A program made the translations under genes and the position numbers. From NCBI GenBank assembly GCA_016930515.1, contig JAFGGO010000030.1:1-15871 (forward strand): a stretch of DNA of 15,871 nucleotides. The letters run 5' to 3'. This stretch comes from Promethearchaeota archaeon (GTDB lineage: Archaea > Asgardarchaeota > Lokiarchaeia > Sigyniarchaeales > SOKP01). The notes beneath the pieces are model-generated. The model did no database searches. It worked only from the letters and a program-made list of their open reading frames with translations, and was not told the origin of the DNA. Positions 1,250-15,305 of the stretch are shown here, piece after piece (position 1 is the first letter of the stretch; every line of letters starts with the position of its first letter).

Positions 1250-2278
1250 TTATAAAATCTTGGAGGTTGCATATTGCATATTGATCCCTCGAATAAAAAG
1301 CAACTTGGGAGGTTTTATGGGCGTTTTGTGAACCTCGCACTGATCGCGTTCTTTATAGTATTGGTCACATTCACTACAGTAAAAATTTTGCCTTGCTTGA
1401 TGTCTTAATGCTCGTGCTAATACCTCACTTGAGTTCAACAAGCTTCCAAAAGTTTCGGCGTCGATATTGGAAACAATCTCATCGAACTTGCAACTATCAC
1501 ATGTGATTGTTAGCTTTAATATCACGAACACGAGCTTGCGAGGACTTTTCCGGACGAGATCGAGCAAGAGAGATTTGCACCTCAAGTTCTGATCCCCGCA
1601 TTTACTACACGCCTCCTTGTTGGTTGGGGAGCTATCCCCGATGGAATGCCCTTGCAAGGGCTTCTTCTTAGCGTCGTCTAAGGTGTCCTCAAATATTTTT
1701 CTCATTTCAAGAATGTCATGTAATCTATCTTTTAGACATCTTCTTTCTTGATGTGTTACTGAGCGAGCGTGTAGTTCTTTATTTATTTCTTCTTCAAGGA
1801 GTCTTTTTTCTTTTGAATTAAATATAATGGTGATGGTTTTAATTCGTTGGTTCTCAGGTGCAGGTGATGAGATCAATTTCGATTGCGAATTCAATGCAAC
1901 TTCGTTTTTCACGACATTGCTCCTAATTGGGCGGCCTAAAATTTCCTCCATTAACTTCCTGAATGCATTTACGAATTCAGAGTGAATGTTAAACGCATTT
2001 CCGCTTAATTCAAGAGTCTCAACTTTCGTTAAAAGGTGTATCGAGTTTGGCAGTGAATATAAATTTTTGTCCTTTAACCACAGCCCGGTCACGTGCCTGT
2101 CTTTCGCTGTAAATCCAAAAATGGCATTCCCAGGATTTGACTCCGCTAGGATCGGAATTGACTGACCAAGCATTACTTCCAAGGCCACGAGAAATTGTAC
2201 CTCTTCGAGGACCAATTTCACTTCCTGATAGAAAGCTACTTTATCCCCAACCTTGTTTCTATCGTTGTTCGAGAACAT
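1250..2278 (-). CDS. hypothetical protein with N-terminal leucine-rich-repeat-like segment and C-terminal multi-CxxC zinc-ribbon region
   Basis: 342-aa ORF that starts 10 nt downstream of the stop of the HerA-like gene on the same strand, suggesting an operon. It has an LRR-like stretch HVTGLWLKDKNLYSLPNSIHLLTKVETLELSGNAF. The C-terminal half has Cys pairs CSKCGDQNLRC, CDSC and CSECDQYYKERDQC. I recognise no enzymatic motif. Confidence 0.5.
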   Translation of the reverse strand: MFSNNDRNKVGDKVAFYQEVKLVLEEVQFLVALEVMLGQSIPILAESNPGNAIFGFTAKDRHVTGLWLKDKNLYSLPNSIHLLTKVETLELSGNAFNIHSEFVNAFRKLMEEILGRPIRSNVVKNEVALNSQSKLISSPAPENQRIKTITIIFNSKEKRLLEEEINKELHARSVTHQERRCLKDRLHDILEMRKIFEDTLDDAKKKPLQGHSIGDSSPTNKEACSKCGDQNLRCKSLLLDLVRKSPRKLVFVILKLTITCDSCKFDEIVSNIDAETFGSLLNSSEVLARALRHQARQNFYCSECDQYYKERDQCEVHKTPIKPPKLLFIRGINMQYATSKIL

Positions 2279-2288
2279 CTTCTTCTCT

Positions 2289-5200
2289 CTAAGGTTTATT
2301 TTCGCTATTGTCTTGACTTAAAAGAATGTCTGAAAACTCTTGCTTTAAAAGCGTTGCGAGTCGTCCCGTGGTGTCCGTAGTACTTAATCCCTTAGCCCGT
2401 TCGAATAATTCGTGTAACTTATTCGTTTTTTCTAAAATCTTCGCCTCGATCTGCATGTTGAGGATTGGAATTTTCACACTGATGTCTTGATTTACCTGAT
2501 CATTACATTTCGGACAACGCGCCTTGGAAGCAGCAGACGAACGAAATACCTTGGGACAATTCGAACAGAAAACATAATTAGCGTGAAAGCCTCGAAGTCG
2601 TTCCCATAACTTGTCCGAAAAGTTTTGAACAGCAAAGCATGCTTTTTTAGAGGGAAACTTAATTTTCTCGATTGTTCCCTCTCGATTAATCGATATTTCA
2701 GAGATGATAAACGAATATTCGTTGGAGTCTTTCTGTCCACTTATCTGATAATGCAGCTGTTCGATGACTCCTTTATTGCAACTTTTATTTTCGAGTTCCT
2801 CGTCCCTAATCTCATCTTTCACGCCCCAATCTTTTGGTTTTACTAGATCCATTACGACTAAAAAAGGCTGGTCGTATTGTTCCAACTTAATGACGCACTC
2901 TCCAGGAGCAAGGCGGGTCACGTGTCCAAGATTCTCGGCGGATAAACCCAAAGAATCTCGAAAGTCTTCGATTTGATATCTTGAGGGTATCTTGTGGCAT
3001 ATCTTAAGCTCGGTGTTCGTGATCGCAACTTGATTGAGCTGTCGAGGTTTTTGCTCCGATATGATAAACCCTTCTCCGTAAGCGCGAATTTCGGCCAGAA
3101 TGTCGCTGAAATCCTCTTGCGACTTGTGTGCGATGCTATCTTTGGACCTATCTGAAATCCTCGCCGATGATAGAAGCCTGTGCGCCTCTTCTAATACCGT
3201 AATATGTCTCAAGGAGGTGGAAGGTTTATTTTGTTGTTGGTAAAGGTACAATAACCTCACGATGTAATTAAAAACTAGCGCTCTTTCTTCGTTGTTTCTG
3301 AGACTATCAAGTTCCAAGATGACATTTTTTTTTAAGATTCGATCGATGTTTGGATGATTTTTTGACGAATTAAAGATTTGTCCTCTCGTACCCTTGAGTA
3401 GCGAGCCAAATCTCGCCTCAAACGCTCCCAAGAAACCGTCCTTCGTGCGGTAGTCATAACTCGAGAATCGAATTTTCAAGACGGTATACTTGAAAAAATC
3501 TTCCAAGGTTGGCGTTCTTCCCCTCTTAATTTCGGTCCAGCCGTTTACCTGATAAATTTCAACCAGAGAGGTATAAATGACATCCCTAAAAGGGTACCAG
3601 ATGTAAAAGGTGTTCGAAATTACCTCAAGAAGCTCGTTTACCCATTGAGTATAATTCAAAAAGCGTGGAACTTCAAAAAGGTTAATCTTCAATCTATTCG
3701 TGGCTGCTCCAGCGGAATATACTTCCACGTTCTTGAAGTGATTGAGCACGTGACGATATTCTTTTTTAATGGGTTCCACGACTAGGAAGGGAATCTTTTT
3801 TTCTCGTGATTTCATCAAAATATTAAGGACGGTATTGGTCTTACCAGATCCCGTTGATCCTATGACTAAACAATGTCGGGTAAGAGAATCCAAATCCAGG
3901 TAAAAATCTTCTACCACGTCACTTCCTCGCTTAATGCGACCGATCCGAAGGGGATTTGCCATTTTATTTACCGCCATCTCTGGAAGTTCTTCGGAGAAAT
4001 CAGGGATCTTAAGAACTTTAAAATTCGAAATCGATCTTGTCGGTAAATTGATGTGATCGCCTAACCTGTGCGAGGAATAAATGGTTCGATATGGCTTAAA
4101 CTCGGAAGAGGCTTCCAAGCCCGTGCCCAAGGTCGTAACTGCCTTGAAGGACTTGGGAAACCAATTCAACGGCTCGCCAAGTTGAAATGCATCGACGGGA
4201 AACCAAAAATCGCCTTGGTTCTTAAAATGGGATTTGATGATGGCGTAGATGGTATAATAAGTGCTTTTTTTATCGGCAAAAATATAATTGAACGTGTCCC
4301 AGAGGCCGTGTGTTGCATTTTCTCTTATATATTTATTAATTAATCCGATTTTTTTGATCGCTCTGAATTTTGCGTGCCTCATCGTAAACTCTCTAGTCTT
4401 TTCCGTGTTATCTATTTCGTTGAAATAAAACTCCTCGTCTGGCGTGATTATTGCGTCTAATACATCCTTCAAGTCGGAAAGAATGACCTTGATCCGTTCC
4501 TGATTCAGGCTTTCACCTATTGTAAGAAATCCCCATTTTTGCTTGTTGAGAGCGTTGTTAATCTCGGAAAGGACACTGTTTGTAATAGTCTCCGTTGCGT
4601 GACCTGTTAAGCAACCATAAATTCCTCTATTCTCCACGAACTCAAGGATATCCTCGTGCTCTTGTTGGTTCAAGAACGATATCTTCAGGTTTGGAAAACC
4701 CGAAACCAGTACTTTCTTGAACAAATCGAACTGCTCTTGAAGCGACTTAAGAACATCTTTAGGATTGTTGCCAGAATGTAAAATTCCCAAATAGAATCGA
4801 AAACCTTTCTTGTCGTTTAGCAATATTCGAATTATCTTGCATCCGAAATAATTAAGCGCTTCGAGCATGTTCCTCATAAAAATGTGCCGTCCTTTCACGT
4901 TATCCTCGTTTTTTAAACTTAAACCGTCAATTCTTAAGAGTTTTACGTATTCGAACTTTATTCCGCTTTCTTCAGGGTTTTTTAGCTCTATCACATCATT
5001 GAAGGCATGTTTGGTAGTGAGCACGGCTTCTGCAAGCATTTTTGAATCTACGAGCGCCTCGAGCTCCTCCCGAACTGGGGCGTTGGAGTGATCCAAAGAA
5101 TTCAAAAGCAATTTCTCGTACGAGAGTTCTTTCTCACCGGGTACGGTCTCTTGGCGTTTCTTTAAGGTGTTTTCTAATGCAAAATGTATCAATTCTCCTG

Positions 5201-5582
5201 AAATGGTTAAAAAATGTAAACGAGCTCCCAGAACTTGCGATAATTTCTCTATAGTTGATTTGATCGAGTAATTATACTGATTCACGTTGAAATATAATCC
5301 TTCTTCGCAAACTGTAAGTTCCAACTCGTTTAATATTACATTGTAGAGCTCTTGAAAAAACACCTTATCGTTTAAGATCTCGATGGGGATTACAGACACC
5401 TTCGATCCTGGAAAGTAACTCTGTATTTTGTTAACGATGCCATTAATTTCGATTTTATTTATACTAACTAAGCCATGGGAAGATTCTTTTTCGTCCTTTT
5501 TCCTTCTTTTTATAATTGCATCCTTTTTAGGAAGGATGACAATATGAGAAGAGTTAGAAAGTAGAGCTGCTCGCACGGTCAA
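2289..5582 (-). CDS. HerA/FtsK-superfamily (DUF87/COG0433-like) ATPase with a large unknown N-terminal region and a C-terminal zinc ribbon
   Basis: 1097-aa ORF. Walker A is in RHCLVIGSTGSGKTNTVLNIL, followed by PFLVVEPIKKEY (HerA DPhGEY-like). Walker B is HITVLEEAHRLL. The arginine-finger region is AEIRAYGEGFIISEQKPRQLNQVAITNTELKICHKI. A CxxC-x13-CxxC zinc ribbon (CSNCPKVFRSSAASKARCPKCN) lies near the C-terminus. The first ~550 aa have no motif I recognise. The TTG start at 5582 is preceded by AGGAG with a 5-nt spacer. Confidence 0.8.
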   Translation of the reverse strand: MTVRAALLSNSSHIVILPKKDAIIKRRKKDEKESSHGLVSINKIEINGIVNKIQSYFPGSKVSVIPIEILNDKVFFQELYNVILNELELTVCEEGLYFNVNQYNYSIKSTIEKLSQVLGARLHFLTISGELIHFALENTLKKRQETVPGEKELSYEKLLLNSLDHSNAPVREELEALVDSKMLAEAVLTTKHAFNDVIELKNPEESGIKFEYVKLLRIDGLSLKNEDNVKGRHIFMRNMLEALNYFGCKIIRILLNDKKGFRFYLGILHSGNNPKDVLKSLQEQFDLFKKVLVSGFPNLKISFLNQQEHEDILEFVENRGIYGCLTGHATETITNSVLSEINNALNKQKWGFLTIGESLNQERIKVILSDLKDVLDAIITPDEEFYFNEIDNTEKTREFTMRHAKFRAIKKIGLINKYIRENATHGLWDTFNYIFADKKSTYYTIYAIIKSHFKNQGDFWFPVDAFQLGEPLNWFPKSFKAVTTLGTGLEASSEFKPYRTIYSSHRLGDHINLPTRSISNFKVLKIPDFSEELPEMAVNKMANPLRIGRIKRGSDVVEDFYLDLDSLTRHCLVIGSTGSGKTNTVLNILMKSREKKIPFLVVEPIKKEYRHVLNHFKNVEVYSAGAATNRLKINLFEVPRFLNYTQWVNELLEVISNTFYIWYPFRDVIYTSLVEIYQVNGWTEIKRGRTPTLEDFFKYTVLKIRFSSYDYRTKDGFLGAFEARFGSLLKGTRGQIFNSSKNHPNIDRILKKNVILELDSLRNNEERALVFNYIVRLLYLYQQQNKPSTSLRHITVLEEAHRLLSSARISDRSKDSIAHKSQEDFSDILAEIRAYGEGFIISEQKPRQLNQVAITNTELKICHKIPSRYQIEDFRDSLGLSAENLGHVTRLAPGECVIKLEQYDQPFLVVMDLVKPKDWGVKDEIRDEELENKSCNKGVIEQLHYQISGQKDSNEYSFIISEISINREGTIEKIKFPSKKACFAVQNFSDKLWERLRGFHANYVFCSNCPKVFRSSAASKARCPKCNDQVNQDISVKIPILNMQIEAKILEKTNKLHELFERAKGLSTTDTTGRLATLLKQEFSDILLSQDNSENKP

Positions 5583-6023: not shown

Positions 6024-7268
6024 CTATTGGTTAAACACAGCAACTAGATTAGTGAAAAAGGCTATTGAATCGCTAAAACTGCAAGACATTGAGATTGAAT
6101 CGATTTTATCTAAAATAACTTTTAAATGATTGTTTAAGTTTTGGGATTTGTTGCCAAGCCGATTAATTTTTTCGCTCGTCGTAAAGACATGTGCATAGTC
6201 ATTTCTCTCAACCGAGAGAGAATTAACTTCTCCAAACAAGCTTGATTCGTTTATACCGTGTTCATTAGTGCTGGTTGCAAATCGAAACCTCCTAAAAAGT
6301 TCGTCGGACCTTTCCCTCTGAGCGGTATCGAGTGGATCAAGATCTAATATATCCTCACATAACCAAGATATGAAACTCTCTCGAACCAATCCAAGAGATG
6401 TTGAAAAATCCATTTTTCGAGTTAAGAGCAATCTTGCTAAATTCAATTGTCTCTTCCATAATTTCTTTATTTCATCGTTCTCTCCAAATATTTCTTTTTT
6501 TATCGTCTCGAGTTCAGGAATGATGCCTTGATAAAACGAGTTGCGATAAAAATCATCGTATTCTTTAAAAATATTTTGGGGTTTTCTCGTAAAATGATCG
6601 CTGCTCAAAAAGCGGTTTAATTTTCCCAATAATTCATCGCTCGCAACTCCTGAATTAAGGAATAGCATGATTTTTTGTAGTTCTAAAACTACATTTCTTA
6701 ACGCTTTTACCTTGCTTTTTGCCCATTCAAACGCAGAAATATCTAAGTTTTCTATCAAAAGCTTGATGTGAGATATCTCGTGTTGGAGCATTACTAATTG
6801 ATCGAGTTGTACGAATTTTGAGGTAGTATTAGGACCACGAGAGATTGCGTAATAAATCTTTTCGAGAATGTTTGAAGAAACATTTTCGAAGTAATAGACA
6901 AACGAAAAAAGCAAGCTTTGAAATAATCTAAATCCAAGAGTAATATCGATGATGACGGAGGAATGATTAATATTTCCTAAAACGGTAGTTAGCTTGTTTA
7001 AAAAAAGCCATATGTCCTTTTCTTCCTTGATCTCTGAAATTTCGTATGGTACAATTTTGCATGAGGACGAAGAAGCTTCTTCTAGGATTTGTTTAACTGG
7101 TTCTCGCTGCTTGAATCTCTCAGGAGGAGGATCGGGGATCGACCAACCGTTAAAGGTTTGCTTCCCTTCGGGCGTGTCGGGATAAAAAACGATTATCTGG
7201 GATAAGCTTGTTTTCTCGACTTCGTCTAAGTACTTTACGAGAGCATATGTAGAACACCAATGATTCAC
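6024..7268 (-). CDS. csx1: Csx1/Csm6-family CARF-HEPN ribonuclease; the ORF as tracked starts at GTG and lacks the first CARF strand, and may be disrupted
   Basis: The HEPN R-x4-H motif ERNDYAH (RNDYAH encoded at 6189-6206) sits in the C-terminal domain. The CARF loop motif is VIIDITLGFR. Length and architecture fit Csx1. The N-terminal strand KVLITVLGNS is encoded in frame upstream of the tracked start (see the next feature). Confidence 0.8.
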   Translation of the reverse strand: MNHWCSTYALVKYLDEVEKTSLSQIIVFYPDTPEGKQTFNGWSIPDPPPERFKQREPVKQILEEASSSSCKIVPYEISEIKEEKDIWLFLNKLTTVLGNINHSSVIIDITLGFRLFQSLLFSFVYYFENVSSNILEKIYYAISRGPNTTSKFVQLDQLVMLQHEISHIKLLIENLDISAFEWAKSKVKALRNVVLELQKIMLFLNSGVASDELLGKLNRFLSSDHFTRKPQNIFKEYDDFYRNSFYQGIIPELETIKKEIFGENDEIKKLWKRQLNLARLLLTRKMDFSTSLGLVRESFISWLCEDILDLDPLDTAQRERSDELFRRFRFATSTNEHGINESSLFGEVNSLSVERNDYAHVFTTSEKINRLGNKSQNLNNHLKVILDKIDSISMSCSFSDSIAFFTNLVAVFNQ

Positions 7269-7537: not shown

Positions 7538-8176
7538 TTAAAGCCATAATACCTTCTTTCCACTGAAATACATTCGCTTCAAACCGTATTTATCGCTCAA
7601 TTCTCGAAGGGCAAGAGAAACGGGCTTCGTTCCTCCCGTTAGTTCGCAGATGATTTCAAACTCGTTGATATTTTCTATTATGAGGTCTTCAAGGTTTGAA
7701 AGCACTTCTGGATAATTTTCTCGCAAGATTTCTTGAAAATTCACGGCTTTAACTTCCGTTTTCACGGATTTAAACTTCCCTTTATCGAACTTCTTAAAGT
7801 CCTTGCTCAATTCAGGACTTGTGAGAAGGAGGTACTTCTTTGGCAGGATGCTTATATCTTCTAACGCAGCGAGCACGGCAGTAAAGAGATCCAGTTGGCC
7901 AAGACCTCCGATCAAGCATATTGGTACGATTTCCTGGAATAAAGACCTGAGAGGTTGAATACTCGTCTCGTTTATCTTGTAATATCCTCTTTTTTTAATT
8001 CTCTTGAGCAGTCCAGCGTCAACTAGTTTTTTCAGGTGAAAATCGGGTCGTGAAGTATCGTTGCGGACGTGATCCTTTATTTGCTCGTAATAAAGCGCCT
8101 TGCGTTCTGATAAGAAATAGAACATGATTTTCTTTCGATTAGGATTTTCCAATGCTTCGTTTAAATTACCTGACAC
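7538..8176 (-). CDS. wHTH-CARF protein, a putative cOA-responsive transcription regulator with Csa3-like logic but reversed domain order
   Basis: 212 aa. The N-terminus is an ArsR-type winged helix (NPNRKKIMFYFLSERKALYYEQIKDHV...HLKKLVDAGLLKRIKKRGYYKINE). The C-terminus is a CARF-like Rossmann unit with ICLIGGLG (strand 1 and Gly loop) and the ligand-loop motif EIICELTGGTKPVSLAL. GTG start. Confidence 0.7.
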   Translation of the reverse strand: MSGNLNEALENPNRKKIMFYFLSERKALYYEQIKDHVRNDTSRPDFHLKKLVDAGLLKRIKKRGYYKINETSIQPLRSLFQEIVPICLIGGLGQLDLFTAVLAALEDISILPKKYLLLTSPELSKDFKKFDKGKFKSVKTEVKAVNFQEILRENYPEVLSNLEDLIIENINEFEIICELTGGTKPVSLALRELSDKYGLKRMYFSGKKVLWL

Positions 8177-8444: not shown

Positions 8445-8873
8445 ATGCTAGATAATGATGTTTTTTCTGAACTGAAGGATAAAAATAACACGTGTATGTT
8501 AGGTGGTCTGGGGGATGTTGAACTTTTTGTTGATTTATTGGATGCTCTCGAGCGAGATTACGGAATCGTTCCTAAAAAATATGTGCTTATTACTAGCCCT
8601 GAAATACACGAAAAATTTAAAAAAGGAGATCTAAATCTTGATAAGGTACGCAGCGAAATTTACGAGTTTGACTTTCAAACAGTTTTAAGAGAAGATATCC
8701 AGAAACTCAAGATCGTTTTTAAGGATATTATTGATAAAATTGAGAAAAACCACGAGATCATCTGCGACATCACGGGAGGGACTAAACCCGTATCTATTGC
8801 TTTAATGTCTATTGCAACTGAAAAAAAATTGCTTAAAATTTACTTTAGCGGACGGCATTTTATAAAGATATAG
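8445..8873 (+). CDS. stand-alone minimal CARF-domain protein, paralog of the CARF half of the 7538-8176 product
   Basis: 142 aa. It aligns along its whole length with residues ~85-212 of the neighbouring wHTH-CARF protein. Shared blocks are GGLG, PKKY.L.TSPE, FKK, LRE, EIIC.(I/L)TGGTKPVS.AL and YFSG, about 35-45 percent identity by eye. It has no DNA-binding or effector domain. An alternative start at the internal Met (MLGGLG) is possible. Confidence 0.65.
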   Translation: MLDNDVFSELKDKNNTCMLGGLGDVELFVDLLDALERDYGIVPKKYVLITSPEIHEKFKKGDLNLDKVRSEIYEFDFQTVLREDIQKLKIVFKDIIDKIEKNHEIICDITGGTKPVSIALMSIATEKKLLKIYFSGRHFIKI

Positions 8874-11255: not shown

Positions 11256-11558
11256 TTATTTGATCCTTTTTAAAATACCCATTTGATGTTCTTCTGCCAG
11301 CATTTCTTCAATGTTTAAAATCTTTCCCTCGGGAGGTCGATTTTTTAAGCGAAATACCAGCGCTATTTGGCTCGGCTTCATTTTTACCTGTATTCTATTC
11401 GCTTTAATCGGCGTGTTGAGAATAACAGATAGTATTTCTGCCGTTGATTCGTGTCCTACTGCCGAGATTGCTTTCGAAAGGTCTAATGTCATCTTGCTTT
11501 CGTCGAATTCGAAAAACTCGTAGGTACCATAATCCGTGAGGATGGCTGCGTTTAACAC
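11256..11558 (-). CDS. crn2: DUF1874-family ring nuclease (Crn2 / AcrIII-1-like, cA4-degrading)
   Basis: 100 aa with a GTG start. It is collinear with my recollection of the STIV B116 / SIRV1 gp29 family: LNAAIL..., the catalytic-His block SAVGHESTAEILSVIL, then NRIQVKM, ALVFRLKNRPPEGKIL. Size and motif order match the family. Confidence 0.8.
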   Translation of the reverse strand: MLNAAILTDYGTYEFFEFDESKMTLDLSKAISAVGHESTAEILSVILNTPIKANRIQVKMKPSQIALVFRLKNRPPEGKILNIEEMLAEEHQMGILKRIK

Positions 11559-11700
11559 GAAATCAATATTTACTGTTTGCTTGCCCTCATTACTTTTCTT
11601 GTTATTTTTATCAGTTTTAATCGTTTATCACTTTGCAATTTATTTTTTAAAGTATAGAAAAATGATTTATTGGATTGATCCTGACTTGAGATGGATTCGT

Positions 11701-12660
11701 TCAGGATCCGATGAATTTCGTTCTAATCTCTTGGAAATCAAACGGTCTCGTCAGACTGTAAACGCTTCCCGCCCTATAAAAGAAACTTGCTCGTGGAAAA
11801 TGTCCGCACAGTCCGTGCAGTAACACGGTATATATAATCCCAATAGAAGACAAACCCGCAGGGAGGACGGCGTACTTGCCTATTTTTAAATGCCTGAGGA
11901 CTCCTTCTAAATTAATCACATCGTCAATGGTCTTAACGCAAAAATCTTTAACCGTTTCGTGGTAGGTTAGCGGATTGGTAAGATCTAAACTTGGAGTAGC
12001 TCTTGTTACTTTTTTATACCCTTTCCACTGGCTTATCTCGTGAAGTGCCTCGTCGGACAACTCGTGGCGTGCCAGATTAAGAAAGACGAGGTCCTCTTCA
12101 ATGCTCGGCGGTTGATTCACGGGTGTTTGTACATCTCGATAATGGTTTCGAATGGATTGAAGCGTGATTCGAGGTGTTAAATCGTATCCGTTGTCTTTTT
12201 CGTAAAAGAACGACATTATCGGAAAGTGACCCGTCATTCCGTGAAGCATGGTCGTGAACATTATCGCAGTGGAGTTCAATCCTGGCGGAACGATGACGCA
12301 TTTCTGAGTCGCCAAGATTTCGACGAGAGATTCTCGATTTACGAGCCTATCGAGGATTTCAGCGCAATAATCTCCAACCACTTGCATGTAGGAGGCGGGA
12401 TTCGTCAAGTCCAGGGTTGCAGGTTCGATCTCCACGATTTCGATTTTTCCCCATTGAGATATCGTTTTCAGCGCGTCTTCGTTAAATTTACGCCCAGATA
12501 GGTTTACAACGATGACGTCGCACTCCTCGTATTTTTTCTTCTTTTTCCGGTTAAGTAGCTTTTTTCGAGCGGTAATAATTGATTTTACCAAACTTTCAAT
12601 CAACCTAAAAGTAAAGTAATTGTTTATCATGTTTTCCACGGTTTCCTTTTTTATCTTCAT
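11701..12660 (-). CDS. csx15: tandem-duplicated Csx15-like protein (two Csx15 modules fused), CRISPR type III accessory
   Basis: 319 aa. Two homologous modules span residues ~47-176 (nt 12133-12522) and ~189-316 (nt 11713-12096). Both share NL(S/A), DEAL..ISQW, LDLTNP, P.GL(N/S)S, LHG..GHFP..SFFY and LT.P...Q.IR. The pattern matches my recollection of single-domain Csx15 (LNFSHP..., PSLN..., ELHGRMGYFP). A ~45-aa N-terminal helix and Lys-rich linker precede module 1. Confidence 0.6.
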   Translation of the reverse strand: MKIKKETVENMINNYFTFRLIESLVKSIITARKKLLNRKKKKKYEECDVIVVNLSGRKFNEDALKTISQWGKIEIVEIEPATLDLTNPASYMQVVGDYCAEILDRLVNRESLVEILATQKCVIVPPGLNSTAIMFTTMLHGMTGHFPIMSFFYEKDNGYDLTPRITLQSIRNHYRDVQTPVNQPPSIEEDLVFLNLARHELSDEALHEISQWKGYKKVTRATPSLDLTNPLTYHETVKDFCVKTIDDVINLEGVLRHLKIGKYAVLPAGLSSIGIIYTVLLHGLCGHFPRASFFYRAGSVYSLTRPFDFQEIRTKFIGS

Positions 12661-12853: not shown

Positions 12854-13894
12854 ATGGAATTCGTCGTCAGGGAGTTTCAAGAAGAAATATCAAGAGCCTC
12901 GAAGAATAGGAACATGAAGAAGACAAATAAACTCATGAAAGAGCTCGTTCGATCCCCTGAGGCCAAGCTCCTTGCCATCTACAAGATTACCCAAAAAAAC
13001 AAGGGCAAGCATACAGCAGGAAACGACGGCAAGAAATACGAAACGACCGCAGCAAGAATGGACTTGTTTAAAAGGCGTTTTGATTATAGGTGGTACAGGT
13101 TTAATAAAATTCTCGTGAGAGAGATTCCAAAAAAAAACAAAGATAGGAATCGAAAGAAATTTGACGGTAATAACGTCGTAAAAAAGCGCAAGTTAGGAAT
13201 CATGACCCTGAAGGATAGGGTGATGACCAAGATCGTTAGTTTTGCGCTCGTGGCAAAATGGGAACCTTTTCTCGAGTCGAACGTGATGGGCTATCGCGAG
13301 GGAAAGAGTGTTCAAGATTGCATCCATTTGGCCTGCAAGGAGCTGACAAAGGGCAATAAAATCGTATTAGACGCCGATATCAAGAACTTTTTCGAAAACA
13401 TCAATCACGAGGCAGTTTTAAAACACCTGCAGGTGTTTCGAAGGTTTGTCAAGCGCTTGTTAAAAATAAAAGTTGCAACGCCACACAAGAGAGCTCGTAA
13501 AAATCGCAGGGGTATTGTCCAAGGGAGCCCTCTCAGTCCCGTGCTCTCGAACATCGCTTTACACGGCATGCAAGATCTGTTTGACACGCAATTAATCGGA
13601 AATAAACTCGTTAAAGCCGGATCGAAGGTTTCAGTGATCAGATATGCCGACGACTTCGTGGTGTTCGCACCTTCGAGACACGCCATTGAGTCCTGGGTCT
13701 TGCCTAAGATAAAGGATTTCCTGGAACATCGCGGTCTTTCTCTCAACATAGAAAAGACGAAAATCGTCACCAAGGAAGAAGGGTTCACGTTTTTAGGGTA
13801 CACGATCAAGCAAGAAGGCAAGGACCTGTTAGTGTTCCCGGAGAAAAATCCGAAAGCGCGACGGGCAAAAGAAATAATACACCTTGCACTATAG
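12854..13894 (+). CDS. group-II-intron-like reverse transcriptase, CRISPR adaptation-associated, not fused to Cas1, no thumb/X domain
   Basis: 346 aa with RT motifs in order: KGKHTAGNDG, RKLGIMTLKDRVMTKIV, VLDADIKNFFENINHE, RGIVQGSPLSPVLSNIALHGM, IRYADDFVVF, LNIEKTKIV and FTFLGY. The protein stops ~27 aa after FLGY. Homology to group II RT N-termini (W..INW) continues in frame upstream of the ATG to about 12824. Confidence 0.9.
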   Translation: MEFVVREFQEEISRASKNRNMKKTNKLMKELVRSPEAKLLAIYKITQKNKGKHTAGNDGKKYETTAARMDLFKRRFDYRWYRFNKILVREIPKKNKDRNRKKFDGNNVVKKRKLGIMTLKDRVMTKIVSFALVAKWEPFLESNVMGYREGKSVQDCIHLACKELTKGNKIVLDADIKNFFENINHEAVLKHLQVFRRFVKRLLKIKVATPHKRARKNRRGIVQGSPLSPVLSNIALHGMQDLFDTQLIGNKLVKAGSKVSVIRYADDFVVFAPSRHAIESWVLPKIKDFLEHRGLSLNIEKTKIVTKEEGFTFLGYTIKQEGKDLLVFPEKNPKARRAKEIIHLAL

Positions 13895-13938: not shown

Positions 13939-14217
13939 GTGTACATCGTGGCCTACGACATTACTGATAACAAGCGATTGAGAGAGGTCGCAAACACTTG
14001 CCTGCAATACCTCTCGCGGGTTCAAAAGTCCGTGTTCGAGGGAGATTTGACGCCGAGCCAATTGCATTCGCTAAAAAAAGAATTGAAGTCGATCATGGAC
14101 GATAAAACGGATTCCATCTTGTTTTATTTTTTAAAAAATTCCTCAATAAAAAAAAGAATCGTGCTTGGAAAGAGGAAAAACGACCCGTTTTTCATAAAAG
14201 AAGGGGACGAATCGTAA
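13939..14217 (+). CDS. cas2: CRISPR-associated endoribonuclease Cas2
   Basis: 92 aa with a GTG start. It has the canonical Cas2 N-terminus MYIVAYDITDNKRLREV with catalytic Asp, then RVQKSVFEGDLT and DSILFYFL. Confidence 0.9.
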   Translation: MYIVAYDITDNKRLREVANTCLQYLSRVQKSVFEGDLTPSQLHSLKKELKSIMDDKTDSILFYFLKNSSIKKRIVLGKRKNDPFFIKEGDES

Positions 14218-14294: not shown

Positions 14295-15305
14295 ATGCAA
14301 AAAACGCTTTACATAACGAGCTCGAAGTTTGAATTGAAAAAGGAAAACGACACGATCAAATACGAGCGAGCAGATCCCGATAACGCGGGAAAAAACATCA
14401 CGCAGGTAATTCCCGTGATGCAACTAGCGTCTATCGAAACCTATGGGAACGTGAAGATCAGCACGCCCCTGTTAAAGCTCTGCAACGAGCTGGGAATACC
14501 CTGCTTTTTTAACACTTATCGAGGGCATCCCATAGGGAAATTCGTGCCCGAAAGACCGAAACCAAGCATCGTGCGGCTCAAGCAGTTCGAAACCCATCTT
14601 GACGAGGAGAGAAAGCTCCACATTGCCAAGGCGATCGTTAGAAAAGCCTGCGAAGAACGGATAAAACTCGTAAATAAATACGACGAGAAGGGAAGCTTGA
14701 AAAAAATTACAGGAGAAATTTCTTCTTTTTTGAAAAAGACTGCGAGCGCCAAAACCACGAACCAACTTCGAGGATTTGAGGGAAACGCCATGAAGGCGTT
14801 TTTCGAGGCTTTTTCAAAAATTCTCAAGCACTTGTCCTTTAACGGCAGGTCCACGCAACCGCCCAAGGACGAGGCGAACGCCCTAATTAGCTTCGGGAAT
14901 GTGATGCTGTACAACAAGGTGCGAGCCGTTCTTTATCGAACCTCGCTCGATCCGTTAGTGGGATTCTTGCACGAACCTCACGAGAATCGAAACTCTCTTG
15001 CGCTTGATATGGCCGAGATCTTCCGTCCAATAACCGTGGATGCCACGATCTTAATGCTCGATCGAAAAAGAAATATTACTTCAGAACATTTTAAGCACGA
15101 TAAAATAAAATGCTTATTAAATCCTGCGGGTAAGCACATATGGATAGAGACATTCAGAAATAAATTAGAATCGTCTTTCGATTACAAACCGCTTAAAAGA
15201 AAGGTTTCTATACAAGAACAAATCAAGATTGAATGCTTTAATCTCATTAAATATTTCAATCGGGAAAAAAGTAATTACGCACCAATTGAATTTAATACCT
15301 TGTAA
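14295..15305 (+). CDS. cas1: CRISPR-associated integrase Cas1
   Basis: 336 aa. Cas1 motifs are LRGFEGNAMKAFF (catalytic Glu), PPKDEANALISFGNVMLY and DPLVGFLHEPHENRNSLALDMAEIFRP (catalytic His and Asp/Glu). A GGGAGAGAGAG purine tract lies upstream of the ATG. Confidence 0.95.
   Translation: MQKTLYITSSKFELKKENDTIKYERADPDNAGKNITQVIPVMQLASIETYGNVKISTPLLKLCNELGIPCFFNTYRGHPIGKFVPERPKPSIVRLKQFETHLDEERKLHIAKAIVRKACEERIKLVNKYDEKGSLKKITGEISSFLKKTASAKTTNQLRGFEGNAMKAFFEAFSKILKHLSFNGRSTQPPKDEANALISFGNVMLYNKVRAVLYRTSLDPLVGFLHEPHENRNSLALDMAEIFRPITVDATILMLDRKRNITSEHFKHDKIKCLLNPAGKHIWIETFRNKLESSFDYKPLKRKVSIQEQIKIECFNLIKYFNREKSNYAPIEFNTL

Follow-up and report, generated by a model that had tools for sequence, protein, structure and literature searches.

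A tandem, single-chain Csx15 protein encoded beside a Crn2 ring nuclease in a CRISPR accessory island of an Asgard archaeon

The stretch of DNA analysed here, 15,871 nucleotides (nt) long and hereafter called the window, is part of the genome of a Promethearchaeota archaeon (assembly GCA_016930515.1, contig JAFGGO010000030.1). On its minus strand it carries a gene for a protein of up to 319 amino acids (aa), designated here tandem csx15, followed by a gene for a ring nuclease of the Crn2 (DUF1874) family. The locus raises the question of what Csx15, normally a small protein of one module, does when two such modules are joined in one chain and a ring nuclease is encoded at its side. With somewhat more confidence than doubt, we answer that it is a covalent Csx15 pseudo-dimer, which binds and buffers cyclic tetra-adenylate (cA4) beside a fast Crn2.

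Two Csx15 modules in a single chain

The two halves of the protein are homologous. Aligned by BLASTP, residues 47-176 and 189-319 gave 105 bits (E 2e-35), with 48 of 127 positions identical (38%) and no gaps; the internal duplication announced by the original prediction is therefore real and far beyond chance. Among the motifs it had listed, LDLTNP, P.GL.S, LHG..GHFP..SFFY and Q.IR occur in both halves, whereas 'DEAL' reads EDAL in half 1 and the P of 'LT.P' stands one residue off there (LTPR, against LTRP in half 2). The start of the gene has probably been set too far upstream. All nine homologues (311-320 aa) begin where Met11 of the window protein stands, and for this reason we place the start at the ATG at 12630 (Met11), with a product of probably 309 aa. 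The length of the linker between the modules differs between members in the alignment of the tandem family.

Both modules belong to the Csx15 lineage. Against the NCBIfam profile NF040560 (CAS_Csx15, curated cutoff 35 bits) the whole protein scored 59.9 bits in two matched stretches, and half 1 alone reached 39.1 bits. Half 2 alone scored 26.1 bits (E 8e-6), which is below the cutoff, and spans profile positions 3-120. Thus, the proposed family assignment held in profile searches for the entire protein and for half 1, with half 2 as a sub-threshold match. The Csx15 model of PADLOC also matched. A profile made from the Csx15 modules recovered both Csx15 proteins of known structure, PfCsx15 (9tet, E 2.5e-18) and CliCsx15 (9teu, E 1e-17), as well as CbCash, a Schlafen effector, in its Csx15 domain (9ylu, E 2.6e-7). 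Sequence searches of the Protein Data Bank (PDB) with tandem Csx15 returned Csx15 entries only, and the Pfam scan gave no family at E≤0.01, thus no SAVED match. Nearly all of about 60 relatives have 120-170 aa, which agrees with the earlier statement that Csx15 is normally a protein of one module; the window protein has two modules per chain, unlike the single module of ~125-146 aa that forms homodimers.

The full chain was modelled with AlphaFold2 using the family alignment, with a mean predicted local distance difference test score (pLDDT) of 81 (75-81 over the five models) and a predicted template modelling score (pTM) of 0.84. Each half is predicted to form five strands, the last two of them a β4-β5 hairpin, the feature that sets Csx15 apart from canonical CARF domains (PMC13148439). 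A model trimmed of the N-terminal 46 residues reached a pTM of 0.80. In Foldseek searches against the PDB at E<1e-3, the full and the trimmed model matched SAVED domains exclusively (26 and 47 matches, respectively), over ~280-300 columns and with template modelling (TM) scores of 0.4-0.53. The matches included SAVED-CHAT, Cap5, 3TM-SAVED, TIR-SAVED, Cap14, Cap4 and the viral stand-alone AcrIII-2 (9r8s, TM-score 0.50-0.53). The top match of the trimmed model was the cA4-binding CalpL (7qda, E 2.3e-6), and the Cap5 structures 7rwm and 8fmf were matched too. A model of the canonical Csx15 dimer has been reported to match 7RWM, 8Q3Z, 8FMF and 7QDA (Hoikkala et al.); three of these four entries (7rwm, 8fmf, 7qda) were found here with one chain. 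No other result speaks as strongly for an arrangement of the two halves that mirrors the subunits of a Csx15 dimer. The packing as a pseudo-dimer that had been anticipated is thus what the modelling predicts, and the chain looks like a covalent Csx15 pseudo-dimer. In a library of viral structures we found one significant fold match, a protein of 236 aa, the size of AcrIII-2.

Residue asymmetry and descent of the tandem form

The two halves differ at ligand-binding and catalytic positions, in line with the asymmetry expected from the outset. We mapped them onto PfCsx15, CliCsx15 and CbCash (hereafter, Cash). PfCsx15 requires its motif-I His (H11) to bind cA4 and to multimerise, and CliCsx15 requires it (H13) for catalysis (PMC13148439). 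In half 1 the motif reads S55-G56-R57, with the His replaced by Arg57 and the preceding Ser (S9 of PfCsx15) retained as S55; in half 2 it reads A197-R198-H199, where A197 replaces the Ser and H199 (codon CAC at 12064-12066) preserves the His. The Arg triad R116/R120/R123, which in PfCsx15 touches the ligand phosphates from the 'upper' dimer, is down to two of three in half 1 (R171/R175/Q178) and to one of three in half 2 (R313/I317, where the chain ends before the third position). Other positions are alike in the two halves: the adenine-flanking aromatic residue (Y113 of CliCsx15, F275 of Cash) is Y159 and Y301, and the residue after PPG (F241 of Cash) is L128 and L270. The central His of the LHG motif (H82 of PfCsx15, H90 of CliCsx15) is kept as H140 and H282 and is invariant across the tandem family. 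This position is functionally important, since the H90A exchange in CliCsx15 abolished oligomerisation.

Members of the tandem family share only 33-38% identity, yet about 65 positions are invariant. These include PPG, LHG-G-FP, the aromatic hairpin and the first Arg, which line the pocket in solved structures. The invariant DLTNPxTY, specific to the tandem family, falls in the loop that bears the adenine-contacting R204 in Cash. Most tandem relatives carry Arg in place of the motif-I His in both halves; the closest relatives of the window protein keep at least one His (both in P0011; one in L046, where the other half has Tyr). From these substitutions, the tandem family looks like a Csx15 lineage drifting from a symmetric enzyme or sponge to an asymmetric binder.

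Ahead of the first module, AlphaFold2 predicts a helix at residues 19-38 (pLDDT 50-76). The N-terminal extension is kept throughout the tandem family; among the single-module relatives, P0014, P0018 and P0019 are examples that have it too. The helix of the window protein is amphipathic (hydrophobic moment 0.56), with a Kyte-Doolittle maximum of 0.78 in a 19-residue window; the same measure gives 1.8-2.0 in P0004 and P0006-P0009, and transmembrane-like N-termini are present in the more distant relatives P0050 and P0056. Some Csx15 proteins, single-module and tandem alike, share this hydrophobic or amphipathic N-terminal helix followed by a Lys/Arg-rich stretch, a combination of which we found no description in the Csx15 literature searched.

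Tandem Csx15 is rarely encountered. Among 5.8 billion proteins, a word-indexed search returned nine relatives only, all of them collinear with the window protein and at 33-38% identity. When 1.84 billion cluster representatives were searched exhaustively with HMMER, 64 matches at E≤1e-3 were obtained: four clusters correspond to the full-length main tandem family, a few are fragments, and, leaving aside the four proteins named next, the rest are single modules of 120-170 aa. P0044 and P0054 were rejected as adhesin-repeat false positives. P0017 (315 aa) and P0063 (325 aa), each with two stretches matched by the hidden Markov model, are tandem Csx15 as well. The only named genome with a member of the tandem family is a Lokiarchaeia/Promethearchaeia metagenome-assembled genome (MAG; L046), whose 308-aa protein bears the NCBI name 'CRISPR-associated protein Csx15'. 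A peptide-pattern scan of 185,579 species genomes with the family alignment gave no match. A degenerate DNA motif for LHGxxGxFPxx[SA][FY]x[YF] hit 35 loci, of which two were real by tblastn, namely the tandem gene of L046 and L037, which corresponds to the single-module P0014. A viral or anti-CRISPR origin was rejected, as no sequence relative was present in 50,697 phage records or in IMG/VR, a result that fits the literature, in which Csx15 is reported to be absent from phages.

In a neighbour-joining tree of the modules, the halves of the main tandem family form one clade (85% bootstrap), the sister of which is the single-module P0014, where the N-terminal helix is already present (87%). The halves of P0017 pair together (99%), and those of P0063 pair within another group of single modules. 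Because the halves of these three lineages group separately, the tree indicates that tandem fusion of Csx15 arose at least three times. Separate clades of half 1 and half 2 within the main family received 0% support, and whether the same or opposite halves of different lineages are compared, the identities agree to within -5 to +7 points (37-55% within proteins). As judged from these comparisons, recurrent duplication and gene conversion that homogenises the halves are equally plausible explanations for the main family.

Crn2 and the possible roles of tandem Csx15

The downstream neighbour is a DUF1874 ring nuclease on the same strand after a gap of 142 nt, as had been read from the sequence. 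It matched PF08960 (STIV_B116-like/DUF1874) over its full length (75 bits, cutoff 26), and the PDB entries 2j6b, 2j85, 2x4i and 6scf; it aligns with AFV3-109, STIV B116 and the AcrIII-1 protein SIRV1 gp29. Compared with the latter (2x4i), H36 corresponds to the catalytic H47, and S38/T39, R55 and R74 to S49/T50, R66 and R85, which contact cA4 (bioRxiv 10.1101/778746); the putative catalytic site is therefore conserved. PADLOC names the protein 'Csx16' (E 1.1e-20). Both Pfam and the PDB matches place it in Crn2/AcrIII-1, and no CRISPR family of NCBIfam matched at E≤0.01 to support the name Csx16 independently; the label looks like a naming inconsistency between libraries.

The AT-rich gap between the two genes contains a T5 tract ~40 nt past the csx15 stop codon and several TATA-like A/T runs. 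A scan for sigma-70 promoters and intrinsic terminators gave counts at chance level and no terminator on the minus strand; its consensus is bacterial and the host is an Asgard archaeon, for which reason the scan is irrelevant here. Read from the gap sequence, a promoter of its own for crn2 would be as plausible as read-through from csx15 in a single transcription unit, as first proposed. In none of the nine other contexts examined was crn2 found beside tandem csx15, so the pair is specific to this contig. A 93-aa open reading frame (ORF) downstream of P0012 was considered as a Crn2-like gene and rejected as unrelated. Two ring nucleases are found together in only ~4% of ring-nuclease-positive loci, the exception being Csx15, which was accompanied by Crn1 in 7 of 18 loci; Crn2 is rare in cellular genomes (seven loci), and ring nucleases accompany cA4-activated effectors (PMC12409355). 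The combination in the window is a new instance of the known habit of Csx15 of keeping a second ring nuclease.

In the reading that we favour, the two modules would pack as the subunits of a Csx15 homodimer do, giving a stand-alone SAVED-like unit behind the N-terminal helix and polybasic linker. This unit would bind cA4 made by Cas10 and buffer it, acting as a sponge or, with one active centre, as a slow ring nuclease. Any catalysis would be limited to at most one slow centre around His199; the candidate catalytic or ligand residues are His199, His140/His282 and Arg171/Arg175. The original prediction had suggested cyclic oligoadenylate (cOA) turnover or buffering for both proteins of the locus. 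For tandem Csx15, binding or sponging would be likelier than turnover, because the motif-I His is Arg in half 1 and two of the three ligand Arg residues are missing from half 2. The cA4 site might be situated either in the pocket of the pseudo-dimer or between copies stacked head to tail. In Csx15, dimers stacked head to tail form a composite site for cA4 between them (PMC13148439), whereas Cash holds the ligand in the dimer pocket (PMC13462974). Since the two place the ligand differently, the single asymmetric ligand site that had been envisaged is one of two possible geometries, although the asymmetry of the halves itself stands. The adjacent Crn2, with its catalytic site intact, would act as the fast cA4 degrader. 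Between them, the two proteins would determine at what threshold and for how long the co-encoded CARF effectors (CARF-PIN, Csx1) are activated, and buffering by tandem Csx15 would dampen spurious signalling, as proposed for Csx15. Csx15 is known as a good sponge and a slow enzyme, and alone among ring-nuclease families it is habitually accompanied by a second ring nuclease.

A number of observations weigh against this reading. Only one of five AlphaFold2 models of the trimmed protein was confident; the Foldseek TM-scores are moderate (0.4-0.5), with root-mean-square deviations of 7-9 Å, and the interface between the halves is a predicted model only. The His that is essential in PfCsx15 and CliCsx15 is replaced by Arg in half 1, and in both halves of most relatives. 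The equivalents of the phosphate-contacting R120 and R123 are gone from half 2, and that of R123 from half 1; with these losses, the canonical stacked-sandwich cA4 site of Csx15 may not form in the tandem protein. The adjacency of Crn2 is not conserved in other tandem-csx15 loci. Moreover, the production of cOA must be taken from the context, as neither Cas10 nor a CRISPR array is present in the 15.9-kb window.

The N-terminal helix invites another explanation, in which tandem Csx15 is itself an effector or sensor. A head-to-tail filament driven by cA4 would cluster the helices and perturb the membrane, in the manner of TM-CARF, TM-SAVED, Csx23 or Cam1-type proteins, or the filament would recruit or activate CARF-PIN. 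Helix and polybasic stretch are conserved in the tandem family and its single-module sisters, and the hydropathy values of P0004 and P0006-P0009, together with the N-termini of P0050 and P0056, would suit a membrane segment; the helix of the window protein, with its charged residues and a maximum of 0.78, has too little hydrophobicity for one. Filaments of 3TM-SAVED are among the fold matches, but the matches to TM-SAVED come from the SAVED part only. In most tandem members neither half retains the catalytic His, a state that recalls the Csx15 domain with which Cash senses cA4, and the convergent pairing with CARF-PIN is conserved in at least four lineages. Nevertheless, the protein has a single short helix and no recognisable effector domain, neither the Pfam nor the PADLOC scan found an effector match, and the characterised stand-alone Csx15 proteins are sponges or ring nucleases (PMC13148439). 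We consider an effector role rather unlikely. It also enters a bolder picture, that of a 'SAVED domain in the making': a recent and repeated conversion (at least three lineages) of a dimer into a single chain, which in Asgard archaea would have yielded a helix-tethered, cA4-triggered and filament-forming membrane effector or a gatekeeper of CARF-PIN. This picture, too, is unlikely.

The divergence of the halves could also mean that the ligand has changed, such that the protein reads cA3, cA6 or a linear or modified product and buffers a messenger that Crn2 cannot handle. SAVED domains do exploit pseudo-symmetry to recognise ligands that are asymmetric, cA3 and 3'2'-cGAMP among them; the halves have diverged at motif I and in the Arg triad, the invariant DLTNPxTY is in the loop of the adenine-contacting R204 of Cash, and the two regulators of the locus would be non-redundant. 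Against it, every characterised Csx15 (PfCsx15, CliCsx15, Cash) is specific for cA4, Crn2 and the Csx1-like effector of the island are both tied to cA4, and no effector of the cA3 or cA6 type (NucC, Csm6-type) was recognised by PADLOC in the window. A changed ligand appears quite unlikely. It is very improbable that tandem Csx15 is a degenerate derivative that no longer binds, with a structural or spacer-acquisition role together with the divergent RT-Cas2-Cas1 genes (RT, reverse transcriptase). The losses of the motif-I His, R120 and R123 would fit such decay, as would the recurrent adjacency to RT-Cas2-Cas1 (the window, L007/L008, L015) or Cas1 (L046); however, an ordinary CRISPR locus layout would give the same adjacency, other members adjoin arrays or CARF genes, and some 65 invariant positions, pocket-lining ones included, have been held at low overall identity.

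Genomic setting, known systems and significance

Nine of the ten distinct tandem-csx15 contexts are CRISPR-linked. RT-Cas2-Cas1 genes are divergent from the gene of P0011 (L007/L008), as in the window; an RT is encoded in L015, Cas1 and Cas6 in the Lokiarchaeia MAG L046, and CARF genes at the P0012 locus. CRISPR arrays with a common 30-nt repeat accompany P0003, P0008 and L012, the last of which also has a fragment of a type III-D Cas7. CARF-PIN homologues adjoin tandem csx15 in L012, L013 and L001-L004 and are its recurrent convergent neighbour (L012 3472-5026; L013 1961-2437; L001 6141-6842). The contexts of the independent tandem lineages P0017 and P0063 are short, uninformative contigs.

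Some details of these loci deserve mention. In L012, CARF-PIN is split into a CARF gene (169 aa) and a PIN gene (353 aa), and in L001 it is reduced to a C-terminal piece of 233 aa. Several short arrays of the 30-nt repeat (GTTTCAATCTATTTCTAGTT...) are present in the homologue loci (L001 6900-9580; L003 2060-5660; L012 2018-2171, 5401-6428 and 9860-12165), set apart by repeated segments of ~300 nt with 82-98% identity that resemble duplicated leaders. Two genes for small GTPases of the Arf/Ras/Roc family adjoin the tandem-csx15/CRISPR island of P0003 (L001 2077-4349). In L046, tandem csx15 and cas6 are followed by an ORF of 149 aa (1313-1762, minus strand), which has an HExxH-like motif (HEIGHRKGLMH) and no family match.

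The window itself has an island of RT-Cas2-Cas1-Cas4, four CARF genes and Crn2 (Table 1). The CARF-PIN protein contains an insert of ~230 aa between its CARF and PIN parts, without family assignment. The wHTH-CARF and CARF-only proteins matched CARF_m5 of PADLOC at 6e-42 and 2e-27; a 47-nt inverted repeat (7611-7657/8754-8800, 81% complementary) reflects the paralogous CARF domains of these two genes on opposite strands (44% aa identity). The N-terminal half of the HerA/FtsK-like ATPase has no assignment, and among the PADLOC matches of the protein is a HerA model, 'Type III coevolved'. The architecture of MutY-like glycosylase with winged helix recurs in many proteins of Asgard MAGs at 58-68% identity, and its closest named relatives are exclusively Asgard archaea; together with the GTPase genes on the contig of P0003, this assigns the window to an Asgard archaeon. 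No Rfam family matched in the window.

Table 1 Features of the window, in order of position, with the residue ranges of tandem Csx15
Feature	Positions	Strand	Basis and remarks
MutY/Nth-type HhH-GPD glycosylase with C-terminal winged helix	270-1136	-	Pfam/NCBIfam
HerA/FtsK-like ATPase (1097 aa), then 342-aa ORF	1250-5582	-	P-loop region at ~aa 540-920; no family match for the 342-aa ORF
Csx1-like CARF-HEPN	6024-7268	-	PADLOC Csx1/Csm6, E 1e-19
wHTH-CARF	7538-8176	-	PADLOC CARF_m5; Pfam CARF_Card1 hits among the sensor genes of the island
CARF-only	8445-8873	+	PADLOC CARF_m5
CARF-PIN family effector, 701 aa	9096-11201	+	PADLOC CARF_m1--CARF_PIN, E 5.8e-43; convergent with csx15-crn2
Crn2 (DUF1874/AcrIII-1 family)	11256-11558	-	100 aa, GTG start; PF08960, E 5.6e-21
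Gap between tandem csx15 and crn2	11559-11700	-	142 nt, AT-rich; sequence read
Tandem (single-chain) csx15	11701-12660	-	Maximal ORF, 319 aa; ORF list, NF040560, nine collinear homologues
Csx15 module 2 (aa 188-319)	11704-12099	-	Self-alignment; NF040560 for the module alone; residue map; sequence read
Inter-module linker (aa 179-187, PVNQPPSIE)	12100-12126	-	AlphaFold2: no secondary structure, block mean pLDDT 56
Csx15 module 1 (aa 47-178)	12127-12522	-	Self-alignment; NF040560 for the module alone; residue map against PfCsx15, CliCsx15 and CbCash
N-terminal extension (aa 11-46)	12523-12630	-	Predicted helix, then polybasic stretch RKKLLNRKKKKK
RT	12854-13894	+	Pfam/NCBIfam; divergent from tandem csx15
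Cas2	13939-14217	+	Pfam/NCBIfam
Cas1	14295-15305	+	Pfam/NCBIfam
Cas4	15320 to window end (15871)	+	Pfam/NCBIfam

Compared with characterised Csx15 (9tet, 9teu; Chi et al. 2026, PMC13148439), both modules are homologous, share the predicted five-stranded fold with its β4-β5 hairpin, and conserve PPG, LHG(H82/H90)-G-H-F-P, the hairpin aromatic residue and the first Arg (R116). The presence of a second, bona fide ring nuclease nearby, as in Csx15 with Crn1, is a further point in common, and an association with type III CRISPR systems would probably be another. The differences are the two modules per chain in place of a homodimer of ~130-146-aa chains, the motif-I His (H11/H13) in half 2 only, an Arg triad down to two of three in half 1 and one of three in half 2, the additional N-terminal helix and polybasic linker, Crn2 rather than Crn1 as partner, and the Asgard host. 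Crn2 of the window is conventional in comparison with the Crn2/AcrIII-1 family (PF08960), stand-alone and of ~100 aa, with nothing notable that differs.

AcrIII-2/Crn5 (9r8s; PMC12751052), one of the best fold matches, is likewise a stand-alone protein of two CARF-like domains joined by a loop, and it forms a composite cA4 site between monomers stacked head to tail (PMC12751052). The lower face of one of its domains carries a single catalytic His, the upper face basic residues, a layout that the tandem family would share by analogy; of its catalytic set (H128, R96, K99), the candidate counterparts are limited to H199 and R171/R175. AcrIII-2 is viral and has no detectable sequence homology to the cellular tandem Csx15, the halves of which are still 38% identical and of Csx15 lineage; the tandem architecture is therefore independent of AcrIII-2 and more recent. 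In Cash (9ylu/9ylv/9ylx; PMC13462974), the Csx15 domain is a cA4 sensor that has degenerated at the catalytic positions, with Gln at both His positions and the first Arg only, resembling in this most tandem halves. Its cA4 lies in the pocket of the Csx15 dimer, contacted by residues equivalent to L128/L270 and Y159/Y301, and touches only the dimer beneath, not the stacked neighbour. Cash differs in being a homodimer with one Csx15 domain per chain and a Schlafen nuclease, whereas the tandem protein has no enzymatic effector domain. With SAVED domains the tandem shares two CARF-like modules in one chain and a predicted pseudo-dimer, but no membership by sequence.

Already known are the Csx15 family, the relation of its fold to that of SAVED, and proteins in which Csx15 is fused to CARF (PMC4012209) or to Schlafen. 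In the literature searched we found no mention of a Csx15-Csx15 tandem, and database annotation does not flag this form. Tandem Csx15 is thus a rare, undescribed variant of a known regulator and no new kind of system.

SAVED domains are thought to have come from the fusion of two CARF-like subunits. To our knowledge, the halves of known SAVEDs are too diverged for their sequences to show it. The halves of the tandem proteins are 38-55% identical and clearly Csx15, whose homodimer and cA4 chemistry were solved in 2026, and this provides a 'before and after' pair for the fusion. Its effects, namely asymmetric sites, the loss of one catalytic centre and altered stacking, are thereby open to study. 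The single-chain scaffold permits each half of the ligand site to be mutated alone, which a homodimer does not, and is handy for dissecting the composite site of Csx15. The value of tandem Csx15 lies in a conversion of a CARF dimer to a SAVED-like form that can be traced in sequence, and in what it adds to Csx15 biology, namely an occurrence in Asgard archaea, a pairing with Crn2, and forms whose N-terminal helix may target the membrane.

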